From contig CARCRR010000028.1 in the NCBI GenBank assembly GCA_948954545.1, positions 1 to 48,081 of the forward strand: 48,081 bases of DNA, in the 5' to 3' direction. The translations under genes were made by a program, and so were the position numbers. Numbering within the stretch: the stretch's first letter is position 1; each line of letters begins with the position of its first letter. Below are positions 8,625 through 47,061 of the stretch, piece by piece. Under the pieces are notes generated by a model that ran no database searches, was not told where the DNA came from, and saw only the letters and a program-made list of their open reading frames with translations. The stretch comes from an uncultured Lachnospiraceae bacterium (GTDB taxonomy: Bacteria > Bacillota > Clostridia > Lachnospirales > Lachnospiraceae).

Positions 8625-8865
8625 GGACGCCAGAGTATGGCATTGCAGTACTGTTTCGCTCTACAGAAAGTAAGAAGCTCTAAGACTTCTGAATTTAGAT
8701 GCATCCAACCGGACGGACCGGGGTGCAATTCGCCCGTGCTGCGGGCTAAACACACCCCTTTTTTTGCCATTCGAGAATGGCAAAAAATCCTAATGAATCG
8801 ACAGAAGTCTAAAAGCTTCTAACTTTCCTCCGAAGTCACAGTACTGCAATGCCATACTCTGGCTG
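8625..8865 (-). repeat. Family-1 foldback element, copy 2 (reverse orientation).
   Basis: Termini GGACGCCAGAGT...ACTCTGGCTG, the same central hairpins, and a copy-specific self-complementary arm segment TATGGCATTGCAGTACTG / CAGTACTGCAATGCCATA. Confidence 0.85.
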
Positions 8866-9187: not shown

Positions 9188-9270
9188 TGCCGCAGGCCGG
9201 ACTTGAACCGGCACGAGGTCGCCCCCGCTAGATTTTGAGTCTAGTGCGTCTGCCATTCCGCCACTGCGGC
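9188..9270 (-). tRNA. tRNA-Leu (anticodon CAA), 83 nt, long variable arm; CCA not encoded.
   Basis: Manual cloverleaf: acceptor GCCGCAG/CTGCGGC, anticodon stem CTAGA/TCTAG, loop CTCAAAA, T-arm GCCGG-TTCAAGT-CCGGC. Confidence 0.85.
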
Positions 9271-12703: not shown

Positions 12704-12856
12704 ACTCCTAAACTACATCCTTCCTAATTCAAAATCCCATCTCTATCCACACACCAAAAAATATCATACCACTCCTCATTCCACCAAACCACCCCAAAAT
12801 TCCCTCCCATTCCCACCTGAATAAAAAATAAAAATCAAATCTATCGCCAGAAAGAA

Positions 12857-13108
12857 CCAGCTGGAGTTTGGAAGCCCTTTCTCTATGCAGTGACTTCGGA
12901 GAAAAGTTAGAAAGTCTTATGCCTCTGTCGATCTCCTAGGATTTTTGCCATCTTCTGATGGCAAAAAAGGGGTGTGTTTAGCCCGCTGCACGGGCGAATT
13001 GCACCCCGGTCCGTCCGGTTGGATATATTTTCATTCAGAGGCATTAGACTTTCTTACTTTTCGGAGAGCGGAACAGCATAGAGAAAGGGCTTCCAAACTC
13101 CAGCGTCC
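12857..13108 (+). repeat. Family-1 foldback element, copy 3.
   Basis: Termini CCAGCTGGAGT...ACTCCAGCGTCC. Its terminator-like hairpin has a compensatory stem (GCCATC-ttct-GATGGC). Confidence 0.85.
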
Positions 13109-13116
13109 CCTACACC

Positions 13117-13300
13117 ATCCCCCCAGCTTTTCTATCCTAATATCCACACACCATCCCCCAGCTTTCCCATCTCAATATCCACACATCATCCCCCAACTTT
13201 CCCATCTCAATATCCACACACCATCCCCCCAACTTTCCCATCTCAATATTCACACCATCCCCCCAACTTTCCCATCTCAGTATCCACACCATTCCCATTC
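13117..13300. repeat. Tandem repeat, ~33-34 bp unit x ~5 (consensus AACTTTCCCATCTCAATATCCACACACCATCCCCCC).
   Basis: Read directly. It lies immediately right of family-1 copy 3 and left of the carboxypeptidase stop codon. Confidence 0.8.
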
Positions 13301-22786: not shown

Positions 22787-22972
22787 TGTGGTTCTCCTTA
22801 CCCATAGTGTTACAAACCTGCTTCGATTAATCGAACATATATACGATTGTAGCAGATTTTCTATTATCTGACAAGACCTTAATTCGAATCGATCGAATAG
22901 TAATCTGATTATTTATAGTGAGCCAGAAAGTTATTTATAGTGAGCCGAATGATTGTTTATGGCGATCCGGAC

Positions 22973-23112
22973 GATTGCATCTGCTGGTGATTCCCTGCTG
23001 GGGCCGTTTGCACTAAGGCTTCCTCGCAGCGGACACATAAGGCACGAAAGTACCGTGCCTAAGTGCCGGCGGGAAGCAATACCCCTGCAGGGATTCACCA
23101 GCAGCTACAATC
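22973..23112 (+). repeat. Family-3 unit A, 140 bp: 16-bp outer arm GATTGCATCTGCTGGT, GATTC, 98-bp conserved core, GATTC, 16-bp complementary arm.
   Basis: The core CCTGCTGGGGCCGTTTGCACTAAGGCTTCCTCGCAGCGGACACATAAGGCACGAAAGTACCGTGCCTAAGTGCCGGCGGGAAGCAATACCCCTGCAGG is shared with 23733, 36849 and 37238. Confidence 0.85.
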
Positions 23113-23146
23113 TGTCTATCTCAACGGAATGTTTGATAGAATCGCT

Positions 23147-23407
23147 TTACCAAGTTGTTTTCTGATCTTTATGTGTATAATGTTTCATCTGTACTAATAA
23201 ATTGGACAATTTTTCTTGATAATATTCTTTCTGTTTTTCATCCAGTTTATTTGCATCAAGATATTCCTGAAAAACCTTTTGAAATTCCTTTAAATTTTCT
23301 TGTGCTGCGTCTTTATAATTATTTGACATATTCATTTGTATCTTTTGTAAAATTGTCTCTAACTGAGCATTTTTCTTCGCTTTATTTTTCAGATCTTTAA
23401 AAAACAC
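23147..23407 (-). CDS. Hypothetical small protein (86 aa, K/E/Q-rich).
   Basis: ORF only; no recognisable motif. Confidence 0.35.
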   Translation of the reverse strand: MFFKDLKNKAKKNAQLETILQKIQMNMSNNYKDAAQENLKEFQKVFQEYLDANKLDEKQKEYYQEKLSNLLVQMKHYTHKDQKTTW

Positions 23408-23614
23408 GGATTTAATTTAACCTCCTAAATCTTTAAATTAAAAATATATCGCCTATTTTATATAAAAATGCGGAGAGAAATCCATATTTTTCCTCTCCGA
23501 TCTATTTACCATCTCTATTATAAAAGCAGCCTTAAAATTTTTCAACTATATTTTATTATAAATATAATATTCCATGTAAAACATAGGAAAATTTTCACTA
23601 AAGCATAAAAATCA

Positions 23615-23718
23615 AAGGAAATTCGCAATCCGCTTCACTACTCGCTCATAACCTCATAGCCACTATCGCAACTTTTCAATGAAAGTCTAAAGTCTGCACT
23701 TCCTTGATGAGGTTAAAA
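23615..23718 (+). repeat. Family-2 repeat, degenerate copy (left module + variant middle hairpin + right end).
   Basis: ATTCGCAATCCGCTTCACTACTCGCTCATAACCTCAT ... ACTTCCTTGATGAGGTTAAAA. Confidence 0.7.
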
Positions 23719-23732
23719 TAAGGTACAAAACA

Positions 23733-23872
23733 GCTCGCCCTAAGGGATCTTTCTTTGCAGGGGTATTGCTTCCCGCCGGCACTTAGGCACGGTCTTTTCG
23801 TGCCTTATGTGTCCGCTGCGAGGAAGCCTTAGTGCAAACGGTCCCAGCAAAGAAAGATCCCTTAGGGCGAGC
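23733..23872 (-). repeat. Family-3 unit B, 140 bp. Outer arms GCTCGCCCTAAGGGAT / ATCCCTTAGGGCGAGC; the pentamers are CTTTC / GAAAG (inverted here, not direct).
   Basis: Same 98-bp core in reverse orientation. Confidence 0.85.
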
Positions 23873-23979
23873 GTCAGGACTACCCAAAACAATTCTAAAT
23901 CAAACAATCCCAAACCACTCCAAACAATCGAAACTCTACAATAAATGAAAAACTTAGTATAAAATATATTATACCTATT

Positions 23980-25407
23980 CTATTTATTCTCCGTCTGAGG
24001 CAGACTAATCCGCACAAACCGCCTTAAAAACTCCCGTCCATTAAAAGGAAACAACGGATACAAATAACTCTTTCCCGAAAGCGTGCGATTCTGACAAATA
24101 CAAAATACCGCAAACAAAATTCCAAATCCATATCCCCAAACATCCAATATCTGTGTAAGCAGCAAGGTAATCAACCGCATAAACTTAAGTGCAAACCCCA
24201 GTTCAAAACTAGGCTGCGAATAATTTGCCAACACCACAAAAGCCATATAAAGCATAGACTCCGAATTAAACCACCCCGACTGTACCGCATAATCCCCTAA
24301 TACTAAACCCGCAATTACACTTAAAGGCGTACTAAGCATATTAGGTGTATTCACAGCCGCAAGCCGCAACCCATCAATCGCAAATTCCAAAATAATCAAC
24401 TGCCAAATCAAAGGAACCTGTATCTCTTCAGCCGGAAAGATAAACGCAAGCCATTCTGGAACCCACTCTGGATTTTTCATAAGCAACAGCCAAGTAGGTG
24501 TCAAAATCATTGTCAAGATCGTAATAATAAATCGTGACACTCTAAGATAAGTCCCTGTAACAGGAGGAAAATAATAATCATCTGCTTCCTCTAAAATATC
24601 AAATACCGAACAAGGCAGAATCATAGCGGAAGGAGAATTATCCACTAAAACCGCAATCCCTCCTTCCAATATCGATGCCGCTGCCGTATCTGGACGCTCG
24701 GTATATTTATACTTCGGAAACGGATTCCACCATCCCCTTCTATAGAGACATTCCGCCAAACTCTCCTGATTCATAGTCAATGCATCAATATCAATTTTTT
24801 TAATTCTCTGAATCAACTCCTTTAAAAATTCGGGATCGACACGATCTCTCATATAGCAGACAGCTATATCCGTCTTAGAAGAACGCCCCACTGTATAGAT
24901 CTCATTTGTCAATTCCGTGCTTCGAATTCGGCGGCGAATTAATGCCGTATTGGATACCATCGTTTCTACAAATCCATCCCTAGAACCACGCATTACCCTG
25001 TCTTTTTCCGGTTCCTCTACTCCCCTTGACGGATAACTTCTGCAGTCAATCAGATAAGCTTCCTGATACCCCTCTACAAACATTGCAACCACACCGGAAA
25101 GTACATTTTTTATAATCGTATCCTCTTTTGTCTCTAACTCCACTTCTAAATAAGACAAATATTTTTTAGAAAATCCTGCTGCATCGGACGGCATATCCTC
25201 TTTTTTAATACTAACAAAAGATGCCATTAACTTCTGCATATCGTCATCTTTTACAAAACCATTTACAAAAAAATAAACTGCATTTCGCTCACCAATCAAA
25301 AGTTCTTTATATAAAATATCAAAACTATCCTCTGTCCGCAAAAGCTGCTGGAACCGTTTTAAGGTATTTTGAAAATTCAGTTGCTCTGTCTTATCCATTC
25401 CTCCCAC
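23980..25407 (-). CDS. GerA-family spore germination protein (SpoVAF/GerKA-like).
   Basis: ~475 aa. Soluble N-terminal domain plus a C-terminal multi-TM region typical of GerA-family A subunits. Confidence 0.65.
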   Translation of the reverse strand: MGGMDKTEQLNFQNTLKRFQQLLRTEDSFDILYKELLIGERNAVYFFVNGFVKDDDMQKLMASFVSIKKEDMPSDAAGFSKKYLSYLEVELETKEDTIIKNVLSGVVAMFVEGYQEAYLIDCRSYPSRGVEEPEKDRVMRGSRDGFVETMVSNTALIRRRIRSTELTNEIYTVGRSSKTDIAVCYMRDRVDPEFLKELIQRIKKIDIDALTMNQESLAECLYRRGWWNPFPKYKYTERPDTAAASILEGGIAVLVDNSPSAMILPCSVFDILEEADDYYFPPVTGTYLRVSRFIITILTMILTPTWLLLMKNPEWVPEWLAFIFPAEEIQVPLIWQLIILEFAIDGLRLAAVNTPNMLSTPLSVIAGLVLGDYAVQSGWFNSESMLYMAFVVLANYSQPSFELGFALKFMRLITLLLTQILDVWGYGFGILFAVFCICQNRTLSGKSYLYPLFPFNGREFLRRFVRISLPQTENK

Positions 25408-25554
25408 CTTCTCCTTATTTTTTATTTTTCTTCAAGATAGTATCTTCTTAATCTATCCGAAATATACAAAATTTAATAAGGAGATTTTTTCCACTCTAAA
25501 TACTTCATTAAGAAAAAACAAGAGATTTGTATTTTGTCTTCTCAAAATATAGAA

Positions 25555-25681
25555 CAAGTCAAATCGGATATTCGCAATCCGCTTTGCTACTTGCTCCTAA
25601 CCTCATCAAGGAAGTCCACCGCTTTCGCCTTGGCGGCTTAGAAGCGGGGGACTTCCTTGATGAGGTTAAAATATTGAAAAT
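25555..25681 (+). repeat. Family-2 repeat, full copy (left module CAAGTCAAATCGGATATTCGCAATCCGCTTTGCTACTTGCTC + 19-bp-stem hairpin).
   Basis: Direct repeat of 27790-27911. Confidence 0.85.
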
Positions 25682-25889
25682 TACTAATATATCATTTGTC
25701 ATTTCCCATTTCCTATTTTTAAAAAAATAAAAGTTCTTTGCAACATATTATTTTCTATTTATCAATCCATTCTTACGATTAAATATATATTATTATTTTA
25801 TATTACAATATTTTCAAAAGTCACTACTTTTCTCAACTCTGTTTTCATGATATACTAAAATGAATTAATTGTAAAAAGGAGTAACCTTA

Positions 25890-26771
25890 ATGAATAGTAG
25901 AGATATTCTAGATGCCGCCAAAAAAGAATTATCTTCTTTAGACAGTCATTTGATTGATGTACTAGATATCAAACGTCCAACAACATTAGCATACGCAAAA
26001 CAACTCGCAAAAGTTATCTCAAAACTTTCTCCATTGTTGGGAAATATGATTGAATTTTCTACAATTGACTTATTAAATAAACACGACTGGAATGGCGTAG
26101 GTGAATGGATAAGGCAAGATCCTGGTTTCCCTGATGCACTTTTCAAGAGTAGCATAATCCAACCTAACCCTGGTATCGAAATTAAAGCATGGTTTCCTTT
26201 TGCAACAGAAATCACAGCACGCTTCAAGGACAGTGTAACGATTTTTGCACAAGATAATATAGATATGGCACTAATTGCATGGCTACCAGAGAATGTTATT
26301 TGGGGAAAGCCTCAAATTATTGATGTCCTTATAGTTAGCGGTAAGAGTGTTGCAGAAGCAAGAGATTCCCACTACCATAAACCACCTGACTATCTTGTTT
26401 TTGAACCAGAAGACACCTCTGAACGTACCACTAATTTGCAGCAAACCAACACGAATGGTTATAAATTACAATCAGATAAATGCGATGCTAAAGCTGCATT
26501 TTCCATTGTTGAAACATGGGGAAAAGATGCCCAAAGATACAGTCCTGCCCCAGAATATCAACGACTTCTAAGAACTCTATACGGACAATTTATTTATAGA
26601 CTTGATACTAATTATGCCAAAATCGACCGTATAGAACATGAGGAAATTGAACAATTTAAAACCCATGTTTTAAATACTGTTTTTCATAGTATGACAATCA
26701 AACAATGGAGTGAAATTTTATCCTCAAAAGATGAAAAAAAGTTAGAGAACGCATTGAAAACCATCCTGTAA
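25890..26771 (+). CDS. Putative type II restriction endonuclease (PD-(D/E)xK candidate), 293 aa.
   Basis: Candidate catalytic motif FPD-x14-EIK (…QDPGFPDALFKSSIIQPNPGIEIKAW…). The gene is convergent with, and overlaps by 30 bp, a DNA methyltransferase gene, in an AT-rich local composition. Confidence 0.45.
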   Translation: MNSRDILDAAKKELSSLDSHLIDVLDIKRPTTLAYAKQLAKVISKLSPLLGNMIEFSTIDLLNKHDWNGVGEWIRQDPGFPDALFKSSIIQPNPGIEIKAWFPFATEITARFKDSVTIFAQDNIDMALIAWLPENVIWGKPQIIDVLIVSGKSVAEARDSHYHKPPDYLVFEPEDTSERTTNLQQTNTNGYKLQSDKCDAKAAFSIVETWGKDAQRYSPAPEYQRLLRTLYGQFIYRLDTNYAKIDRIEHEEIEQFKTHVLNTVFHSMTIKQWSEILSSKDEKKLENALKTIL

Positions 26772-27740
26772 ACTGTTTTTTACTCGTTCTACTGCTATAT
26801 TATATACATCATGATTGATTTCTGCACAAAAACAAATTCGTTCCAACTCAGTTGAAGCAACCGCTGTTGTACATAATCCAGCAAATGGATCCCAAACCAC
26901 ATCACCAACATCAGAAACCATTTCTATGATACGTTTAATCAATTCCAATGGTTTCTGATTTAGATGTATTGCCTTTTGGTTAATTTTCAAGCGTTCATGC
27001 CCTCTCAACTGTGGAACCTGCCATACATTTGTCACACCAATAGGACAATAAAACTTTGAACGCATCTGTGCCCACTCTTTTTTTGTTATAACGGTTTTAC
27101 CATTTAAAGAAAAGTATGGTTTTCCATTATCTGCTCCAAATGTATTTGCATATACTGCAATCTTTTCAAAAGCTTCTGCAGGCGGCATATACCATAAATG
27201 ACATTTTGTAAAATATTTTCTTGTTGCGGCATCTTTCACTCCACAAGCTTCATTTGTTTTTGAAAATGGAAGCCCTGTACGTTCCCATTCATAGCGCAGC
27301 CATTCTTTCATTGTCATTTGAACCTCCCCTACCATAAAGATAGGCTTTTTTACATATTGAACACACACTTCTGTAACTACAGGCAAATGTCTAATCGTTT
27401 TAGTATTTGTATTTCCCGCTGCATGTCCCATTCCTTTATCCCATACACAGCAAGAAACATAATCCCAGCCATATTTTTCTAACATAGGGTGAACCGTTGC
27501 CCAGCCAACCTCAGTACACCAAAACCATAACGTTGTAAGCGGTGTAGCAAAAGAACTCCATTTTTTTATATGTGGCTCATACCACTCTGCAAGTCCTTTA
27601 TATGAAACTAAATCTCCTGGAAATCCATTTACGCCATATGGTCCATCACAGATTATAACAACTGGAGTTTTCCATTTACTATATAATCTAATCGCATCCC
27701 CACAATATAAATGAATATTTTCAAAATCTATTTTATCCAC
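26742..27740 (-). CDS. DNA methyltransferase, beta-class (motif IV before motif I), N6-adenine or N4-cytosine.
   Basis: ICDGPYG (DPPY-like motif IV) near the N-terminus; VVWDPFAGLCTTAVAS (motif I, AdoMet binding) near the C-terminus. Confidence 0.8.
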   Translation of the reverse strand: MDKIDFENIHLYCGDAIRLYSKWKTPVVIICDGPYGVNGFPGDLVSYKGLAEWYEPHIKKWSSFATPLTTLWFWCTEVGWATVHPMLEKYGWDYVSCCVWDKGMGHAAGNTNTKTIRHLPVVTEVCVQYVKKPIFMVGEVQMTMKEWLRYEWERTGLPFSKTNEACGVKDAATRKYFTKCHLWYMPPAEAFEKIAVYANTFGADNGKPYFSLNGKTVITKKEWAQMRSKFYCPIGVTNVWQVPQLRGHERLKINQKAIHLNQKPLELIKRIIEMVSDVGDVVWDPFAGLCTTAVASTELERICFCAEINHDVYNIAVERVKNSLQDGFQCVL

Positions 27741-27789
27741 TCAAATATTCCTCCTATCTTGGCAATGTTGGATAACATCGTCAACTTTA

Positions 27790-27911
27790 CAAGTCAAATC
27801 GGATATTCGCAATCCGCTTCGCTACTTGCTCATAACCTCATCAAGGAAGTCCCAACCCACCGCTTTCGCCTTGACGGCTTAGAAGCGGGGGACTCCCTTG
27901 ATGAGGTTAAA
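27790..27911 (+). repeat. Family-2 repeat, full copy.
   Basis: CAAGTCAAATCGGATATTCGCAATCCGCTTCGCTACTTGCTCATAACCTCATCAAGGAAGTCCCAACCCACCGCTTTCGCCTTGACGGCTTAGAAGCGGGGGACTCCCTTGATGAGGTTAAA. Confidence 0.85.
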
Positions 27912-28376
27912 TCCTTTTTCGACATATCATAATCAATTAGTAATTTCCATAGCGGTTTATATGAGAAGGACATAATCTAATACCACCTTTTTATTTTTAT
28001 CATAACAAATATATATTGAAGTTACAATACTTTTTCCATTAAGTTGCATTATTTCAGCTTAGACTATAGGAAAAACCTTTAATATTCATATGGCACAGTA
28101 TAAAACCAAAACGAAAACACCAAAACACAACCTTGTAAAAGGCATTGGGCGAAAATCCTTTCACAGGCAGTCAATAATATACTTACAGAAGAATTTCATA
28201 AAATGGAGAAAAAAGAAAACATTAAGAAAACCTTGCTGATATTCAGTCCCTATATCTGAAAATCAACAAGGTTTTTCACATACCTTTTGATGTAATTATT
28301 TCGTACATAATATTATAAATGTTGTTAAACCGTTACCAGACCCCAAACAAATCTACTTGTCTTTATTTTTATTTCT

Positions 28377-29099
28377 TTATTCTGAGGCAGCGGAATCCGA
28401 ATGATAACTATAACTATTACTCTCGCCTTCTCCACGCACGGTTAAATCTAAAGTAGTAATCGTGCCTTCATATTCTGCCGGTATTTGGAAAATTAAAACC
28501 GCCTGTTTCGTTTCATTTGCTGCAAATACTTCCTTAAAAGAAGCCAAATCATCCAGTAACATGGTAAGCTGTGCCCCAAATCGTTCCGTATCATTTACCC
28601 GACACCGGTAAGTTCTCTCTTTGGATAAAATATCGCACTCTTTTTCCTCTCCCGTCCGATTGGTAATATCAAACTTCATAACCAGCAGCCGTTTATTCTG
28701 CGTTGCCCTCATTGCAAAATAAGCATCTCCTGTATTCGGATATGTATTCGTCACTTCATACCCGGCATATTCTACCTCAAATCCTTCCGCTGCAATCCCT
28801 ACCGCTTCCGAAAGATTCTTTGCCGGTGCCTCCGTAGAAACAGGAAGATTCGGCGATATCTGCCCGCCCTGTCCGTTTTGTGATATATCTGCCGGAGCAG
28901 TTGGTGTAATATAAATATTCGGAATAGTCTCTATTACTTCGTCCTGCAATTTAGGCTGATAGGTATTTGAATATTTTAATAATACAGTTGCTGCATACTC
29001 TGCTATTAGATCACTTTCACTATCTGTCAATTCCACTGCTCCGCAGCCTGTTAAAAGTATCGTTGCTGCACATAACACAGTACATAGTCTCTTTTTCAT
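28377..29099 (-). CDS. Putative lipoprotein (signal peptide with lipobox LLTGC).
   Basis: MKKRLCTVLCAATILLTGCG N-terminus; no enzymatic motif. Confidence 0.6.
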   Translation of the reverse strand: MKKRLCTVLCAATILLTGCGAVELTDSESDLIAEYAATVLLKYSNTYQPKLQDEVIETIPNIYITPTAPADISQNGQGGQISPNLPVSTEAPAKNLSEAVGIAAEGFEVEYAGYEVTNTYPNTGDAYFAMRATQNKRLLVMKFDITNRTGEEKECDILSKERTYRCRVNDTERFGAQLTMLLDDLASFKEVFAANETKQAVLIFQIPAEYEGTITTLDLTVRGEGESNSYSYHSDSAASE

Positions 29100-29309
29100 C
29101 CTTCTTACCTCTCACTCTATTCATAAAATTTACAAAAAATTCCCGTCCTGCTTTCCTCTCTTCTCCTAATATATCACGAAATCTGCTTTTTCACAACCTG
29201 ATTTTACATTTTCACAATGCAAATTTCCTTTTTCAATCTAACAATACCCATTCCCAAGCAGTTCCATCTCGCCTTTTATTCTTTTTATTAATAAAAATAC
29301 AGGAAAAAA

Positions 29310-29562
29310 CAGCCAGAGTTTGGAAGCGATTCTTTTTTGCTGTGACTTCGGAGAAAAGTTAGAACGTCTTATGCCTCTGTCGATCCACTAGGATTTTTTG
29401 CCATTTCCAAATGGCAAAAAAAGGCACGTGTTTAGCCTCCTGCAGAGGCGAATTGCGTGCCGATCCGTCCGGTCAGATGCACCTAAACTCAGAGGCATTA
29501 GCCGTTCTTACTTTTCGGAGAGCGGAACAGCAAAAAAGAATCGCTTCCAAACTCTAGCGTCC
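29310..29562 (+). repeat. Family-1 foldback element, copy 4.
   Basis: Termini CAGCCAGAGT...ACTCTAGCGTCC. Both central hairpins carry compensatory substitutions (GCCATTT-cc-AAATGGC; GGCACG..GCCTC-ctgca-GAGGC..CGTGCC). Confidence 0.85.
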
Positions 29563-29596
29563 CCCTCCCCCATTTCCCTACAAAACTCCCATTTCC

Positions 29597-31111
29597 CTAC
29601 AAAACCCCCGTATCACTATCCACCTCAAACCAAAATTCCACCCCATTTTCCAAATTTCGAACCCCATATTCTTTATGATGAGCTTCCATAATCGCCTTTA
29701 CAATCGACAGCCCAATCCCGCTCCCTCCATACTCTCTTGTCCGTGCCTTATCCACCTTATAAAACTTAATCCAAACCTTCCCCAACTCCTCCTCTGGAAT
29801 CGGATTCCCTGTATTAAAAACAGACACCCTTACCGTATGCTCATTTTTTGTCAAAGAAACAACGATCTGCTTCTCTCCGCCTGCATAGTGAATCGCATTA
29901 CTAATATAATTCGTAACCACTTCCTCTAACTGATACTCATCTCCCCATACAAAAACCGGCTCCCGCTGCTCGAATAAAACCGTAATCTTGTCCTGCCTGC
30001 ATAAAATTTCAACCGACTGAATCACACCCAAAATCAATGCCGTCAAATCAAACCGCTCCATCGTAATCTGTTCCTGTCCAAATTCTAACTGATTTAAAGT
30101 CAGCAGTTTCTTTACCATTTTATTCATTTTATCTGCTTCATCTATAATTACTTCACAGTAAAACTCCCTGCTTTCTGCATCCTCATTAATCCCTTCTGCA
30201 AGCCCCTCCGCATATCCCTGAATCAATGCAATCGGCGTTTTTAATTCATGAGATACATTCGATAAAAATTCCTTCCTTATCTCCTCCATCTGAATCTTCT
30301 GCTCAATATCCTTTTGCAGTTCATTATTTGCCGACTTTAATTCAGAAATCGTATGCTCTAACTTTTTGGAAAGTTCATTCATACTCTGCCCTAACACACC
30401 GATTTCATCTTTATCGTGCCGCTCATACTTTGCCTCAAAATCTAAATTAGACATTTTCCCCGATAATTCTGCCAATTCCAACAAAGGTCTAGTCAAACGC
30501 CTAGTAATCGTAATCGAAATCATAATAGCTAAAATACTGACAATTCCTCCCACATAGGCAACAAAACGATTAGAAATCTCTACACTTTCCTTTATACTTT
30601 CCACTGGAATACGAAGCAGCATATATTCTCTGGTATTAGGCTCTACCCCGAATAATTCCAAAAAATTAGTCGAATAGCGACTATCTTTATTTCGAAAAAT
30701 ACTATAATCCTCTTCCCTTTTTAAAGTCACCGCACTATTCTCAATTCCAAATAAATAAGGCATTACCAAATCCTGCAGGGTCTGCACATTGTGCACATTA
30801 TAATAAACTGGTTTTAACATTCCTGTATTGGCATCCAAAATAATAAATGTAATATTGGATTTTTGGCACAACCCCTCTAACTCCAATGCTACCTCATCCG
30901 CCTTTTTATTACTCTGTACCAATTCACACATACTCACATAAGCATTTTCCAATTTTGTCTGTTTACTAATTAAATAATAATCTTCTAAAAATCGATTATT
31001 AATCAATAAAAGCAAAAAAACTGTACCAAAAGTCGCAAATAACATTAATGCTATTATTTTGGTTCGAATAGAATATTGTATTTTCCCTACTAAACCTGCT
31101 ATTTTACTCAT
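29597..31111 (-). CDS. Sensor histidine kinase (TM-HAMP-HisKA-HATPase).
   Basis: H-box SHELKTP; ATPase N/G boxes (NAIHY.., GGSGIGLSIV). Confidence 0.9.
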   Translation of the reverse strand: MSKIAGLVGKIQYSIRTKIIALMLFATFGTVFLLLLINNRFLEDYYLISKQTKLENAYVSMCELVQSNKKADEVALELEGLCQKSNITFIILDANTGMLKPVYYNVHNVQTLQDLVMPYLFGIENSAVTLKREEDYSIFRNKDSRYSTNFLELFGVEPNTREYMLLRIPVESIKESVEISNRFVAYVGGIVSILAIMISITITRRLTRPLLELAELSGKMSNLDFEAKYERHDKDEIGVLGQSMNELSKKLEHTISELKSANNELQKDIEQKIQMEEIRKEFLSNVSHELKTPIALIQGYAEGLAEGINEDAESREFYCEVIIDEADKMNKMVKKLLTLNQLEFGQEQITMERFDLTALILGVIQSVEILCRQDKITVLFEQREPVFVWGDEYQLEEVVTNYISNAIHYAGGEKQIVVSLTKNEHTVRVSVFNTGNPIPEEELGKVWIKFYKVDKARTREYGGSGIGLSIVKAIMEAHHKEYGVRNLENGVEFWFEVDSDTGVL

Positions 31112-32537: not shown

Positions 32538-32690
32538 AAGGAAATTCGGAATCCGCTCCTTCCTCATAATCCTATGCTGCTATCGCTGCTTGTCAGATGG
32601 GACTTTCCCCCAGCTGACACAAGGAAGTCCCCCAACCCACCGCTTTCGCCTTCACGGCTTAGAAGCAGGGGACTTCCTTGATAGGTTAAA
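32538..32690 (+). repeat. Family-2 repeat, variant copy with an extra middle hairpin module.
   Basis: …ATTCGGAATCCGCTCC…TGTCAGATGGGACTTTCCCCCAGCTGACA…CAAGGAAGTCCCCCAACCCACCGCTTTCGCCTTCACGGCTTAGAAGCAGGGGACTTCCTTGATAGGTTAAAA. Confidence 0.75.
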
Positions 32691-32739
32691 AAACACAAAA
32701 GCCCCGGATCTCTCCGGGACTTACTCTGCCGCAAAATCA

Positions 32740-33636: not shown

Positions 33637-33710
33637 TCGAGGTGACGTGATTCGAACACGCGACTTCTACGTCCCGAACGTAGCGCTCTACCAAACTGAG
33701 CCACACCTCG
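33637..33710 (-). tRNA. tRNA-Pro (anticodon CGG), 74 nt, CCA not encoded.
   Basis: Manual fold of CGAGGTG-TG-GCTC-AGTTTGGTA-GAGC-G-CTACG-TTCGGGA-CGTAG-AAGTC-GCGTG-TTCGAAT-CACGT-CACCTCG-A. Confidence 0.85.
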
Positions 33711-33736
33711 AACATAACACGGTTACGTTTAACCGA

Positions 33737-34099
33737 TGGAGCTGAGGGGAATCGAACCCCTGTCCGAAGACTCCTCCATCAAAGCATCTCCCACCACAGT
33801 CCCTGTTTTATGCATAGCCTTTTTCTATACGGTTCCCTCTATCGGACACCCATGGACAGGTTTCCGGCTTTAGTAGCTTCATTTTTCTTTTATACCCTCA
33901 AAGCTTTGGATACAAAGTTCCTTACCTCCTTGATGCCGGATTCTTAAGCAGTAAGCTACCTAAGAGCGACAGCTGCTATTAAGCAGCGAACGCGTAATCT
34001 TCGTTTGCGTTTATATTTAATTTTCGGTTTACTAATGCGGTTCCGACCCGCAGGTGGCTTCTCCAACTTCATAATCCCCGTCGAAACCAGTACAACCCC
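33737..34099 (-). ncRNA. ssrA: tmRNA (ssrA), ~363 nt.
   Basis: 5' GGGGTTGTACTGGTTTCGACGGGGAT…, with a G3·U acceptor pair. 3' …GGGGTTCGATTCCCCTCAGCTCCA (tRNA-Ala-like T-arm and acceptor). The internal tag reading frame is GCA AAC GAA GAT TAC GCG TTC GCT GCT TAA, predicted tag ANEDYAFAA. Confidence 0.85.
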
Positions 34100-36720: not shown

Positions 36721-36848
36721 TACTCTAATTTTACCAAGAGTATTTCCCTAATTTTCAAGGCTTATTCAATTTCTAAAGAAAAGTTATCAGAAAAAAGGAA
36801 AACCACTTCAGCAATTATAAACCAGATATTGGTATTGTAGAACCGGAC

Positions 36849-36988
36849 GCAGGTAGCATAGAGAGATTCTTTGCTGGGGCCGTTTGCACTAAGGCTTCCT
36901 CGCAGCGGACACATAAGGCACGAAAAGACCGTGCCTAAGTGCCGGCGGGAAGCAATACCCCTGCAAAGATTCTCTCTATGCTACCCGC
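36849..36988 (+). repeat. Family-3 unit C, 140 bp. Outer arms GCAGGTAGCATAGAGA / TCTCTATGCTACCCGC; GATTC on both sides.
   Basis: Same 98-bp core as unit A. Confidence 0.85.
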
Positions 36989-36989
36989 T

Positions 36990-37237
36990 GTTTCGTTCCC
37001 CCTAGAAATAATGCCTCATAAACGTTTTTATTCCGCCTGTTGGCTTGTTCCTCCTGGAAACAATGCCTCACAAACATTTTTACTCTGCCTGCCGATCCAT
37101 TCCTCCTAAAAACAACACTCTGCAAAAATTCTCTATTCTGCCTATTGACGTATTTCTCCTGGATTAAACTATCTAAAATCACACAAAAACGGTTTTAGTC
37201 AACCAAAATACTGCGACTGTTCCGGTTGGAATACACA
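36990..37237. repeat. Degenerate tandem repeat, ~52-bp unit x ~3.5 (…CCTCCTGGAAACAATGCCTCACAAACATTTTTACTCTGCCTGCCGATCCATT…), filling the gap between family-3 units C and D.
   Basis: Read directly. Confidence 0.7.
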
Positions 37238-37377
37238 GCTGACACCACTGGATGAATCTCTGCAGGGGTATTGCTTCCCGCCGGCACTTAGGCACGGTCT
37301 TTTCGTGCCTTATGTGTCCGCTGCGAGGAAGCCTTAGTGCAAACGGCCCCAGCAGAGAATCATCCAGTGGTGTCAGC
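37238..37377 (-). repeat. Family-3 unit D, 140 bp. Outer arms GCTGACACCACTGGAT / ATCCAGTGGTGTCAGC; GAATC on both sides (= GATTC in the core's orientation).
   Basis: Same core in reverse orientation; it lies 75 nt past the addA stop codon. Confidence 0.85.
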
Positions 37378-37452
37378 GTCCCCCCAACAGAAAATCACCC
37401 AATGATGTCAGCGTCCCCCCAACATATATTCGTTTAAATTCAAATCATTCGC

Positions 37453-44724: not shown

Positions 44725-44960
44725 ACGCCAGAGTACTTGAAAGGGAACTGTTCCGCTCTCCGAAAAGCAGAAGCTCTAAGACTTCTGAATCTAGGCATAT
44801 CCAACCGGACGGATCGGGGTGCAATTCGCCCGTACAGCGGGCTAAACACACCCCTTTTTTTGCCATTCGAGAATGGCAAAAAATCCTAGTGGATTGACAG
44901 AAGTCTAAGAGCTTCTAACTTTCCTCCGAAGTCACAGTTCCCTTTCAAGTACTCTGGCTG
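44725..44960 (-). repeat. Family-1 foldback element, copy 5 (reverse orientation).
   Basis: Termini ACGCCAGAGT…ACTCTGGCTG; self-complementary variable segment ACTTGAAAGGGAACTG / CAGTTCCCTTTCAAGT. Confidence 0.85.
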
Positions 44961-45454: not shown

Positions 45455-45862
45455 TCAAAAAGATTTTCCGCTGTTTTCCGTTCCCCATTGACACATACTT
45501 TCCATAATGGGGAGGAGGGAACGTCCTTTATTTGAAAGACTATACTCAACTTTTGGTGGTATCTGCGGATATTCTTTACGGATAATAAGCCCGTCTGCTT
45601 CCAATGCCTTTAACTCTGTACTTAATGTTTTGTAGGTGATTGTTCCGATTTTTCGTTGTAGTTCGTTAAAACGTATTGTGTCGTATTCAACGAGCCAATA
45701 GAGAATAACCAGCCGCCATTTTCCACCAATCATAGACAATGTATAGCCAAAAGGAGTATCAGTCAAAGAAACAATTCTCTTTTCAAATTTTTCCATGCTC
45801 ATATAGGTACTTTCCTTAAAGATAGTATTTGTCAAAAAAGTGCGTACTTGTCTTTTTGACAT
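45455..45862 (-). CDS. HxlR-family (MarR-like) transcriptional regulator.
   Basis: GGKWRLVILYWL…IRFNELQRKIGTITYKTLSTELKALEADGLI winged-helix signature. It is divergent from a flavin reductase gene, the typical arrangement. Confidence 0.8.
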   Translation of the reverse strand: MSKRQVRTFLTNTIFKESTYMSMEKFEKRIVSLTDTPFGYTLSMIGGKWRLVILYWLVEYDTIRFNELQRKIGTITYKTLSTELKALEADGLIIRKEYPQIPPKVEYSLSNKGRSLLPIMESMCQWGTENSGKSF

Positions 45863-45913
45863 TGCGAATATAGAATAGCATAAAGAACAATATTTAGCAA
45901 GGGAGTAAAAAGC

Positions 45914-46655
45914 ATGAAAAGAATAATGGTTATTTTAGGCGGCGGGCGTGTCAATGGAAATACATCACAGTTAGCAGAAGCATTTATGAACGGAGCTAAA
46001 GAAGCCGGACACCAAGTAGAGATGGTATCATTGAACAAACTGAATGTAAATGGCTGCATAGGCTGTAATGCCTGTCACTATGGTAAATCTTGTGTACAAA
46101 AAGATGATTTTAACCTCATCAAGGAAGTCCCCCGCTTCTAAGTCGCCAAGGCGAAAGCGGTGGGTTGGGACTTCCTTGTTTCAGTGGGAGTGCAGACTCC
46201 CACTGAAAAGCTGCGATAGTAGCTATGAGGTTATGAGCAAGTAGCGAAGCGGATTGCGAATATCCGATTTGACTTCACTTGTTCCAAAGATAAAAACGGC
46301 GGATTTAATCGTATTTGCGTCACCTTTATATTTCTGGACTGTATCATCAAAAATTAAAGCATTTATTGAACGTTTTTACTGTATAGCAGAAAAAGACGAG
46401 AATCCACCTTTGGGACGATATGAGAAATATCCCATACATGATTGTGCTTTGCTTATGACTTCCGCTGATAACTTTTTTTGGACGTTTGAGCAGGCTGTTT
46501 CTTACTATAAGTTTACATTGATAAACTATATCGGTTTTTACGATAAAGGTATGTTGCTTGCTGGTGGTTGTGGTGAAACAAACGGGAAACCTCAGATTTC
46601 AAAAACCACTCATTTAAGGGAAGCATATGAATTTGGAAAAGCAATTTACGAATAA
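45914..46655 (+). pseudogene. NAD(P)H-dependent FMN reductase / flavodoxin-like fold gene interrupted by a 163-bp family-2 element (at 46112-46274).
   Basis: The two ORFs 45914..46141 and 46254..46655 are N- and C-terminal halves of one protein (…CIGCNACHYGKSCVQKDDF | SLVPKIKTADLIVFASPLYFW…). Deleting 46112-46274 fuses them in frame. Confidence 0.8.
46112..46274 (-). mobile_element. Family-2 element (three-module variant) inserted within a coding sequence.
   Basis: The reverse complement reads GAAGTCAAATCGGATATTCGCAATCCGCTTCGCTACTTGCTCATAACCTCAT + middle hairpin CAGTGGGAGTCTGCACTCCCACTG + …GGGACTTCCTTGATGAGGTTA. Confidence 0.75.
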
Positions 46656-46675
46656 ATGAAAAGGGGCTTTGAAAA

Positions 46676-46993
46676 ATGATGAAGAAATGTAAATTAACTA
46701 TCTTGAAAACAACGCTTCAAGAAGATTTAGCAAAGGAATATGGCATTCCCAATTTAAGCATATGTCCTTTGATGAAAGAAGGACAGGTATTCTATGCCGA
46801 CTATGCGAAGCCGGAGGGCTTTTGTGATGAAGCATGGAAAGCTATCTATCAGTATGTATTTGCATTGGCAAATGGTGCAGAAGGTTGGTACTCTGATGAT
46901 TGGATTGACCCCAAGCATAAAGGTGTGGCAATTTGTTCATGCAATGACGGATTAAGACCTGTAATTATCAAAGTTGAACGAGTTAATAAATAA
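46676..46993 (+). CDS. Small Cys-containing conserved hypothetical protein (105 aa).
   Basis: ORF with an RBS; C-x-x-x…C-x-C pattern (ICPLMKEG…FCDEAW…ICSCNDG). May resemble the TIGR04076 family, but this was not verified. Confidence 0.45.
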   Translation: MMKKCKLTILKTTLQEDLAKEYGIPNLSICPLMKEGQVFYADYAKPEGFCDEAWKAIYQYVFALANGAEGWYSDDWIDPKHKGVAICSCNDGLRPVIIKVERVNK

Positions 46994-47061
46994 TCGAAAG
47001 ATTATATAAATGCAACCGTAAACCATGCAACACCCTATGTGGGAGAAAGGGGGAATCGTTT

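Follow-up and report, generated by a model that had tools for sequence, protein, structure and literature searches.

A predicted Tth111I-family restriction-modification cassette with an overwritten controller gene in a mouse-gut Lachnospiraceae bacterium

The restriction endonuclease (REase) Tth111I cleaves GACN^NNGTC and has the isoschizomers PflFI and PsyI. The literature on Tth111I found in our search covers uses of the enzyme and holds no description of its genes or structure. Type II restriction-modification (R-M) systems that are regulated by a controller (C) protein include PvuII, AhdI, Esp1396I and Kpn2I. The DNA methyltransferase (MTase) M.Osp807II of Olsenella sp. oral taxon 807 forms 6mA in G*ACNNNGTC (MicrobeMod preprint); it has been cloned, its activity has been demonstrated (PMC10810934) and its gene sequence is printed in the supplement. 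Here we compare with these systems a pair of genes in the window, i.e. the whole stretch of 48,081 nucleotides that was analysed, contig CARCRR010000028.1 of an uncultured Lachnospiraceae bacterium. We put the probability at roughly 80% that the locus is a type IIP R-M cassette of the Tth111I / Osp807II family, accessory in some strains of a mouse-gut Lachnospiraceae species. It joins a nuclease homologous to Tth111I, with a modelled PD-(D/E)XK fold and the catalytic residues, to an adjacent homologous MTase with S-adenosylmethionine-binding and catalytic motifs. The cassette belongs to an enzyme family that is already known and in commercial use and that is normally carried by assorted mobile elements; its only unusual feature is a controller gene overwritten by a host repeat, and it leaves the current understanding of R-M systems unchanged.

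The enzyme pair and its predicted recognition site

25848-25856, plus strand: putative extended -10 element (TGnTATACT) of the REase promoter, read from the sequence
25890-26771, plus strand: REase gene, 293 aa, type IIP restriction endonuclease of the Tth111I family, from the listing of open reading frames (ORFs); proposed catalytic residues E55, D82, E97 and K99
26742-27740, minus strand: MTase gene, 332 aa, beta-class DNA MTase, predicted to form m6A at GACNNNGTC

An earlier sequence-only reading of this region had described two convergent ORFs of 293 and 332 aa as a type II R-M pair, and the ORF listing confirms them, their 3' ends sharing 30 bp (26742-26771). The FPDALFKSSIIQPNPGIEIK motif (PD-x14-ExK) that it had pointed out in the 293-aa protein is present and is conserved across 36 family members of 27-57% identity: in their alignment every member has P81 and K99, and at least 90% of the members conserve D82, E97, E55, G95, E107 and R111. 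Sequence searches of Pfam, NCBIfam and the PDB with the nuclease gave zero matches. The same reading had seen no obvious resemblance to any REase it recognised; three lines of evidence place the protein in the Tth111I family. Residues 22-283 match the PADLOC REase_II model PDLC03583, a 319-position profile derived from REBASE, with an E value of 7.8e-42. A search of 1.84 billion cluster representatives matched 266 clusters, and the representative P0178 falls in the same 90% cluster as 'Tth111I [Thermus thermophilus]' (AEN19710.1, 319 aa). Direct BLASTP against Tth111I gave 36% identity over 245 aa (E 4e-43). The window nuclease shares with Tth111I the conserved E...PD...ExK residues and long blocks of sequence, and differs from it in size (293 versus 319-322 aa) and in source, a mesophilic Firmicute as opposed to Thermus thermophilus.

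We modelled the nuclease with AlphaFold2, using the 36-member diverse alignment as input; the resulting model (pLDDT 95.2, pTM 0.91) superseded an earlier run on 45 close homologues of 73-92% identity, which had reached a pLDDT of 61. In the model the PD immediately precedes strand 83-86 and the ExK lies inside strand 95-101. The best 34 Foldseek matches were all type II restriction enzymes, and a non-nuclease fold was not seen; the closest structural matches belong to the EcoRV / HincII / SwaI / NlaIV branch of the PD-(D/E)XK endonucleases. As modelled, the window nuclease has the PD-(D/E)XK restriction-enzyme fold and carries the E...PD...ExK residues of its family. This family comprises 3188 clusters at 90% identity and shows ~75% identity between Lachnospiraceae and Treponema, its members being annotated as 'hypothetical protein' only. 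It is without a Pfam model, an NCBIfam model or a solved structure, so that such a model and structure would be easy wins for a family of this size. One distant homologue (P0281, 27% identity) has no neighbouring MTase and has the ExK glutamate substituted.

The MTase is assigned to Pfam PF01555 (N6_N4_Mtase; E 1.4e-24) by a match along residues 28-318. Its motif IV (DGPYG, residues 32-36) stands ahead of its motif I (DPFAGL, 284-289), the beta-class order already recognised from the sequence, and both motifs are kept in 7 relatives. Over 315 aa it is 50% identical (E 1e-118) to a PF01555 MTase of Thermus tengchongensis that sits 1.2 kb from a Tth111I orthologue; there the R and M genes are co-oriented, whereas in the window they are convergent and overlap. 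The unusual form D-G-P/A-Y-G of motif IV, in place of DPPY, is found in the window MTase, in the Thermus enzyme and in five relatives of gut and treponemal origin. The window MTase is therefore of beta-class motif order and carries the family-specific D-G-P/A-Y motif IV.

The comparison with M.Osp807II used the gene as printed in the supplement. In tblastn the window MTase aligned with it in four pieces (54% identity over 164 aa, 45% over 69, 40% over 45 and 42% over 24) which together span residues 10-323 and have a joint E value of 8e-75. The M.Osp807II sequence was an optical-character-recognition copy of a codon-optimised gene in which dropped bases cause frameshifts; the pieces fall in separate frames solely because the machine-read text loses bases, and the overall identity of ~50% is approximate. 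The pieces do not cover motif IV, which M.Osp807II nevertheless appears to possess, as the supplement DNA GATGGGGCATAACGG can be read as D-G-A-Y-G across a dropped base. The two enzymes belong to the same beta-class family, with an xPFxGL motif I and apparently also a D-G-P/A-Y-G motif IV in both, and differ in length (355 aa for M.Osp807II, 332 aa for the window MTase). Taken together, the PD-(D/E)XK nuclease and the beta-class N6/N4 MTase support the proposal of a type II R-M pair.

Both window enzymes have characterised homologues that act on GACNNNGTC, and the cassette probably cuts this site. The MTase would methylate the adenine of GACNNNGTC on both strands, and a homodimer of the nuclease would cut unmethylated GACN^NNGTC in incoming DNA. 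Because the characterised homologues of R and of M share a single site, with m6A at GACNNNGTC in the case of M.Osp807II, the new specificity that the sequence-only reading expected is unlikely. If the prediction holds, it describes a strain-variable GACNNNGTC m6A methylation and restriction barrier in mouse-gut Lachnospiraceae, which is relevant to genetic manipulation and to phage and plasmid transfer.

Several points weigh against this assignment. Both the GACNNNGTC specificity and the activity are predicted from homology, and 36% identity to Tth111I is no guarantee of identical specificity. The 48-kb window contains 0 GACNNNGTC sites, against 3.45 expected from shuffles or 2.9 from a trinucleotide model, a shortfall that is not significant (P ~0.03-0.06, rank 9 of 64 comparable motifs), and no clear avoidance of GACNNNGTC was found in other cassette-bearing loci. 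With 1-3 synonymous and 1-2 non-synonymous differences between strains, the REase has changed too little to reveal selection, and loss of the controller, described below, could leave the system deregulated or partly silenced.

The low REase identity, the ~50% identity of the MTase to characterised or linked MTases and the lack of significant avoidance would all fit a Tth111I-family system with a different, possibly new, recognition sequence, and R-M specificity can shift at such evolutionary distances. We nevertheless regard this as fairly unlikely. The Thermus Tth111I and the Olsenella M.Osp807II come from different phyla and share GACNNNGTC, and the specificity therefore seems stable across the family. 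Furthermore, both proteins resemble the characterised members from end to end, and this resemblance extends to the part of the MTase that separates motifs IV and I as well as to the RDxxYHxPP and EPxDTSxRTxNLQQ blocks of the REase. GACNNNGTC is also absent from the window.

The controller gene in the window and in related cassettes

25806-28040, no strand assigned: conserved cassette core (R, M, controller remnant, promoters), 74-90% nucleotide identity to other taxa
27741-27790, minus strand: 3' remnant of the HTH_26 controller (C) gene, carrying the ribosome-binding site of the MTase; recognised by alignment with intact C genes from L141 and L006
27791-27912, plus strand: repeat c4, short variant of the family-2 repeat, inside the C gene
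27913-27973, minus strand: 5' remnant of the C gene, first 22 codons intact, then running into the repeat
27999-28027, minus strand: promoter-like site TTGTAA-17-TG-TATGAT upstream of the C remnant, in a block conserved with Lachnoclostridium sp. An169 and L141

We delimited the cassette core by blastn against related loci (L141, L148, L006, L018-L023 and L145-147), of which L141 is the closest relative, at 92% amino-acid identity. Outside the window's species every context examined has the arrangement R (rightward), M (leftward), HTH_26 (leftward), in which an intact helix-turn-helix (HTH) gene of 71-74 aa abuts or overlaps the start of the MTase gene. In Lachnoclostridium sp. An169 the cassette lies in a mobilisable element with a Mob_Pre relaxase and an integrase, beside SMODS/SLATT genes; in Treponema zioleckii it adjoins toxin-antitoxin genes; another contig has it next to GmrSD; further cassettes occur in a second Mob_Pre element and on a Bacteroidota-like chromosome. 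On the metagenome contig L145 (1-4640) an R-M-C cassette lies in a prophage-like region that also encodes terminase, HNH, Mom and primase proteins. A 52%-identical homologue is found on the 7-kb Aeromonas plasmid pAV7K, where the HTH gene overlaps the REase start, i.e. the classic C-R layout. No cassette relative is homologous to the window left of ~25806, and a search of a phage collection gave no protein match. We also compared the 240-aa gene of L141 with the 240-aa gene of the window; the two are unrelated, and their equal length is coincidental. The neighbours on L145 include two Mom-family genes, a ParB-N6_N4 MTase fusion, a PAPS reductase, a small terminase subunit and HNH, a cluster of DNA-modification functions.

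The relatives of the window cassette resemble the C-regulated systems in that a small Xre/Cro-type HTH gene (HTH_26) is closely linked to the enzyme genes. They differ in that in the window's branch the predicted controller precedes the MTase and not the REase, and in the window itself it has been inactivated. Homology to seven independent cassettes ends at 27798 and restarts at 27907, and the gap in homology within the cassette core is exactly c4. The repeat replaces 92 bp of the C gene, i.e. its helix-turn-helix core. What remains is the first 22 codons and ~15 C-terminal codons in a different frame, and a 47-aa ORF at 27830-27973 is a chimera of the 5' remnant and c4. No intact linked HTH controller gene, as expected of a C-protein-controlled R-M system, was found in the window, and the lesion is present in all of the cassette-bearing strains examined. 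The junctions of c4 resemble the native C gene (ACAATCAAAAT versus AAGTCAAAT, and CATTAAATCC versus GGTTAAATCC); because the element ends resemble the native gene at both, the comparison suggests that c4 may have arrived by microhomology-mediated replacement rather than by cut-and-paste insertion.

The ancestral cassette has a third gene, for an HTH_26 controller, which lies immediately before the MTase gene in the same transcription unit; in the window a copy of the high-copy family-2 repeat of the host has overwritten the middle of this gene. The promoter-like site at 27999-28027 is likely to be the ancestral C-M promoter. With the controller lost, the MTase would therefore probably be transcribed constitutively, from this old controller promoter with read-through across c4, and its translation would use the AGGAGG ribosome-binding site of the MTase gene itself. 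Expression of the nuclease probably starts from the TGnTATACT at 25848-25856, a block that is conserved in the An169 cassette and was not listed by a simple consensus promoter scan. This natural controller knockout by a host repeat, retained in several strains, amounts to a small natural experiment on whether an established system can dispense with such a controller.

An alternative would be a decaying cassette, in which controller loss was followed by silencing or inactivation of the nuclease, leaving the MTase as, in effect, a solitary methylase. Destruction of the C gene in every cassette-bearing strain would fit such decay, as would the lack of a strong REase promoter in the consensus scan and the between-strain changes in the REase, where non-synonymous changes are as many as synonymous ones (the counts are tiny). 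However, both R and M ORFs are intact in all of the cassette-bearing strains examined, the REase ORF being full length with all conserved catalytic residues present, the extended -10 block and ribosome-binding site upstream of it are shared with relatives that look functional, and the identical REase protein occurs on 16 contigs. We therefore consider decay quite unlikely. Between strains the MTase changes are mostly synonymous (5-6 synonymous versus 0-1 non-synonymous), and between the window REase and that of L141 there are 63 synonymous and 22 non-synonymous changes.

The family-2 repeats and the strain-variable segment

25496-28359, no strand assigned: strain-variable segment, 2864 bp; an unrelated 157-bp spacer stands in its place in cassette-free strains of the same species
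25556-25671, plus strand: repeat c3, short variant of the family-2 repeat, in the divergent GerA/REase intergenic region and outside the conserved core

The limits of c3 and c4 were set by alignment to 76-78 other family members. The sequence-only reading was right that both repeats exist and point the same way, and its coordinates hold to within a few bases, with the right end of the first copy placed ~10 nt too far. The two copies share 91.9% identity across 123 alignment columns, which include a single 6-nt indel. Family-2 copies in the window lie at 1-73, 23605-23688, 25556-25671, 27791-27912, 32631-32703 and 46105-46275 (minus strand), a density of ~1 per 8 kb. In the species-representative genome set a 24-nt core pattern marked 112 stretches, nearly all of them in three mouse-gut Lachnospiraceae metagenome-assembled genomes (MAGs) and one 'Eubacteriaceae' MAG, and many at contig ends; one repeat-bearing contig (L030, MGBC128194) is 99% identical to window positions 23801-27844. 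The consensus of 167 nt runs AAGTCAAATCGG...GATGAGGTTAAA, and c3 and c4 are of a common 121-nt variant without two internal hairpins. The closest relative of c4 is a copy elsewhere in the genome (98.3%) and not c3, and the two are therefore independent members of the family.

Family-2 repeats have sharp ends and AT-rich flanks (GC 0.29). Their high copy number and sharp ends would suit a miniature inverted-repeat transposable element, a class we rejected for them: terminal inverted repeats were not found (the best terminus-to-terminus alignment is 7 nt), target-site duplication was at chance level (1.99 versus 1.83 in randomly paired flanks) and the insertion sites share no target motif. Some copies stand head to tail (L036 ~4870-4894, L047 ~3740-3765 and, on the reverse complement, L071 ~3600-3623); in these the upstream copy ends ...CCTTGATAG and passes straight into the GGTCAAATCGG of the next without the usual GAGGTTAAA end, and the window copy at 32631-32703 has a similar ...CCTTGATAGGTTAAAAA end.

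The family was also compared with the Clostridiales-1 RNA motif (Rfam RF01699; Weinberg et al. 2010, PMC2864571), which has a similar taxon and habitat. The full-length 167-nt copies align to the whole 166-position model, in consistent register and on one strand, which is opposite to c3 and c4 as written. Their scores of 18.1-25.5 bits stay below the Rfam gathering score of 48, and family-2 further differs from Clostridiales-1 in its dozens of copies per genome. Neither of the short variants c3 and c4 matched RF01699, and an Rfam search of 25450-28050 at E<=1 returned no match. On the strand that matches RF01699, 34 distinct copies contain one compensatory pair (CG in 18, AU in 15) and ~12 pair positions with G-U variants versus 4 with C-A variants, which gives weak support to a possible constraint at the RNA level. 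It is conceivable, if improbable, that family-2 is a mobile repeat which encodes a Clostridiales-1-like RNA, needs neither terminal repeats nor target duplications to spread, overwrites DNA via microhomology at its ends, and in this way deleted an R-M controller while R and M were kept across strains. If so, the cassette would have been rewired: the MTase would have acquired a structured 5' leader that it lacked before, and the repeat hairpins on either side of the convergent unit could insulate or terminate it.

We located strains with and without the cassette through the flanking 240-aa protein. BLAST against the cassette-free L009 and L014 showed that homology stops at 25495 and restarts at 28360, which puts the left breakpoint (25495/25496) 60 bp outside c3 and the right one (28359/28360) 447 bp outside c4. 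A distance of 270 bp separates the 240-aa gene from the GerA gene in L009 and L014. Between the breakpoints the empty allele has an unrelated stretch of 157 bp that includes a terminator-like hairpin of its own, contains no family-2 repeat and is not significantly similar to the flanks in the occupied allele. From these breakpoints and the repeat-free empty allele it follows that the polymorphic unit is a replacement of 157 bp by 2864 bp, or the reverse, which holds both repeats. The AT-richness that had been remarked on is real yet modest: GC between the repeats is 0.346 versus 0.403 for the window, at the 2.5th percentile of same-size windows, and GC at third codon positions (GC3) of the R and M genes is 0.24-0.26 versus 0.33-0.38 in neighbouring genes. 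The empty alleles, the low GC and GC3, and the presence of the three-gene cassette in unrelated mobile contexts support the R-M pair being accessory, horizontally acquired DNA.

These results bear directly on the proposal of the sequence-only reading that the two direct family-2 repeats bracket the R-M genes as a composite unit, gained, lost or moved by recombination between them. That proposal is highly improbable: the copies are indeed 92% identical, similarly oriented, 2.1 kb apart, one on each side and both within the strain-variable segment, but they do not coincide with the breakpoints, the empty allele has no single 'solo' repeat, c4 interrupts the controller gene instead of flanking the cassette and is closest to a copy other than c3, the repeat is frequent in the window and forms >100 stretches in four MAGs, and in other genomes the cassette sits in a mobilisable element, a prophage-like region, a plasmid and defence islands with no family-2 repeat next to it (L006-8, L018-25, L141 and L145-148). 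At such a density two copies 2 kb apart are unremarkable, and c3 and c4 neither define nor move the cassette.

Two copies of a 23-nt box, ATTTTWTCCACTC(T)AAATA(C)TTC, lie in this region, one at 25483-25505, straddling the left breakpoint, and one at 27729-27749, where the MTase gene starts and the C gene stops. The two copies agree at 21 of 23 positions with 2 gaps, a score reached by 0.2% of shuffles, and the box may be a trace of the acquisition of the segment, or chance. In a check of c3 and c4 for flank duplication, the right flanks and the box-to-repeat spacers were not similar, the 23-nt box being the only similar part.

Other features of the window

A TwoAYGGAY RNA was called by Rfam at 8659-8834 (minus strand, 68 bits), and copies resembling it lie at 2694-2957, 12847-13110, 29299-29564 and 44748-44938 (65-92% identity, below the gathering score), so that these RNA-like repeats are multi-copy in the window genome. 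The strain contig L003 is 99% identical to window positions 25718-29570 and then continues (from 3854) with other genes. The point of divergence is the end of the copy at 29299-29564, which suggests either recombination at this TwoAYGGAY-like repeat or an assembly chimera. Directly after the copy at 12847-13110 are five tandem copies of a C-rich unit of ~35 nt (13120-13299).

A third repeat family, with units of ~150 nt, is represented four times, at 22969-23125, 23730-23875, 36845-36991 and 37225-37381, in direct and inverted orientation and with 83-99% identity; it has no Rfam match at the gathering threshold, and two of its copies bracket an 86-aa gene (23147-23407). The window also contains a tmRNA gene (33637-34099, minus strand, 160 bits) with an adjacent tRNA gene, and another tRNA at 9188-9270. 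GC skew is strongly negative over almost the whole window and positive only at ~45500-47000, and the REase is among the few plus-strand genes in 23000-30500. On contigs from related MAGs (L065 6238-6299; L059 541-625 and 1609-1794) we observed a RAGATH-18 RNA (78 bits), a group II intron domain at 51.8 bits, above the gathering score of 40, and a sub-threshold HEARO-like match (30 bits versus a gathering score of 83).

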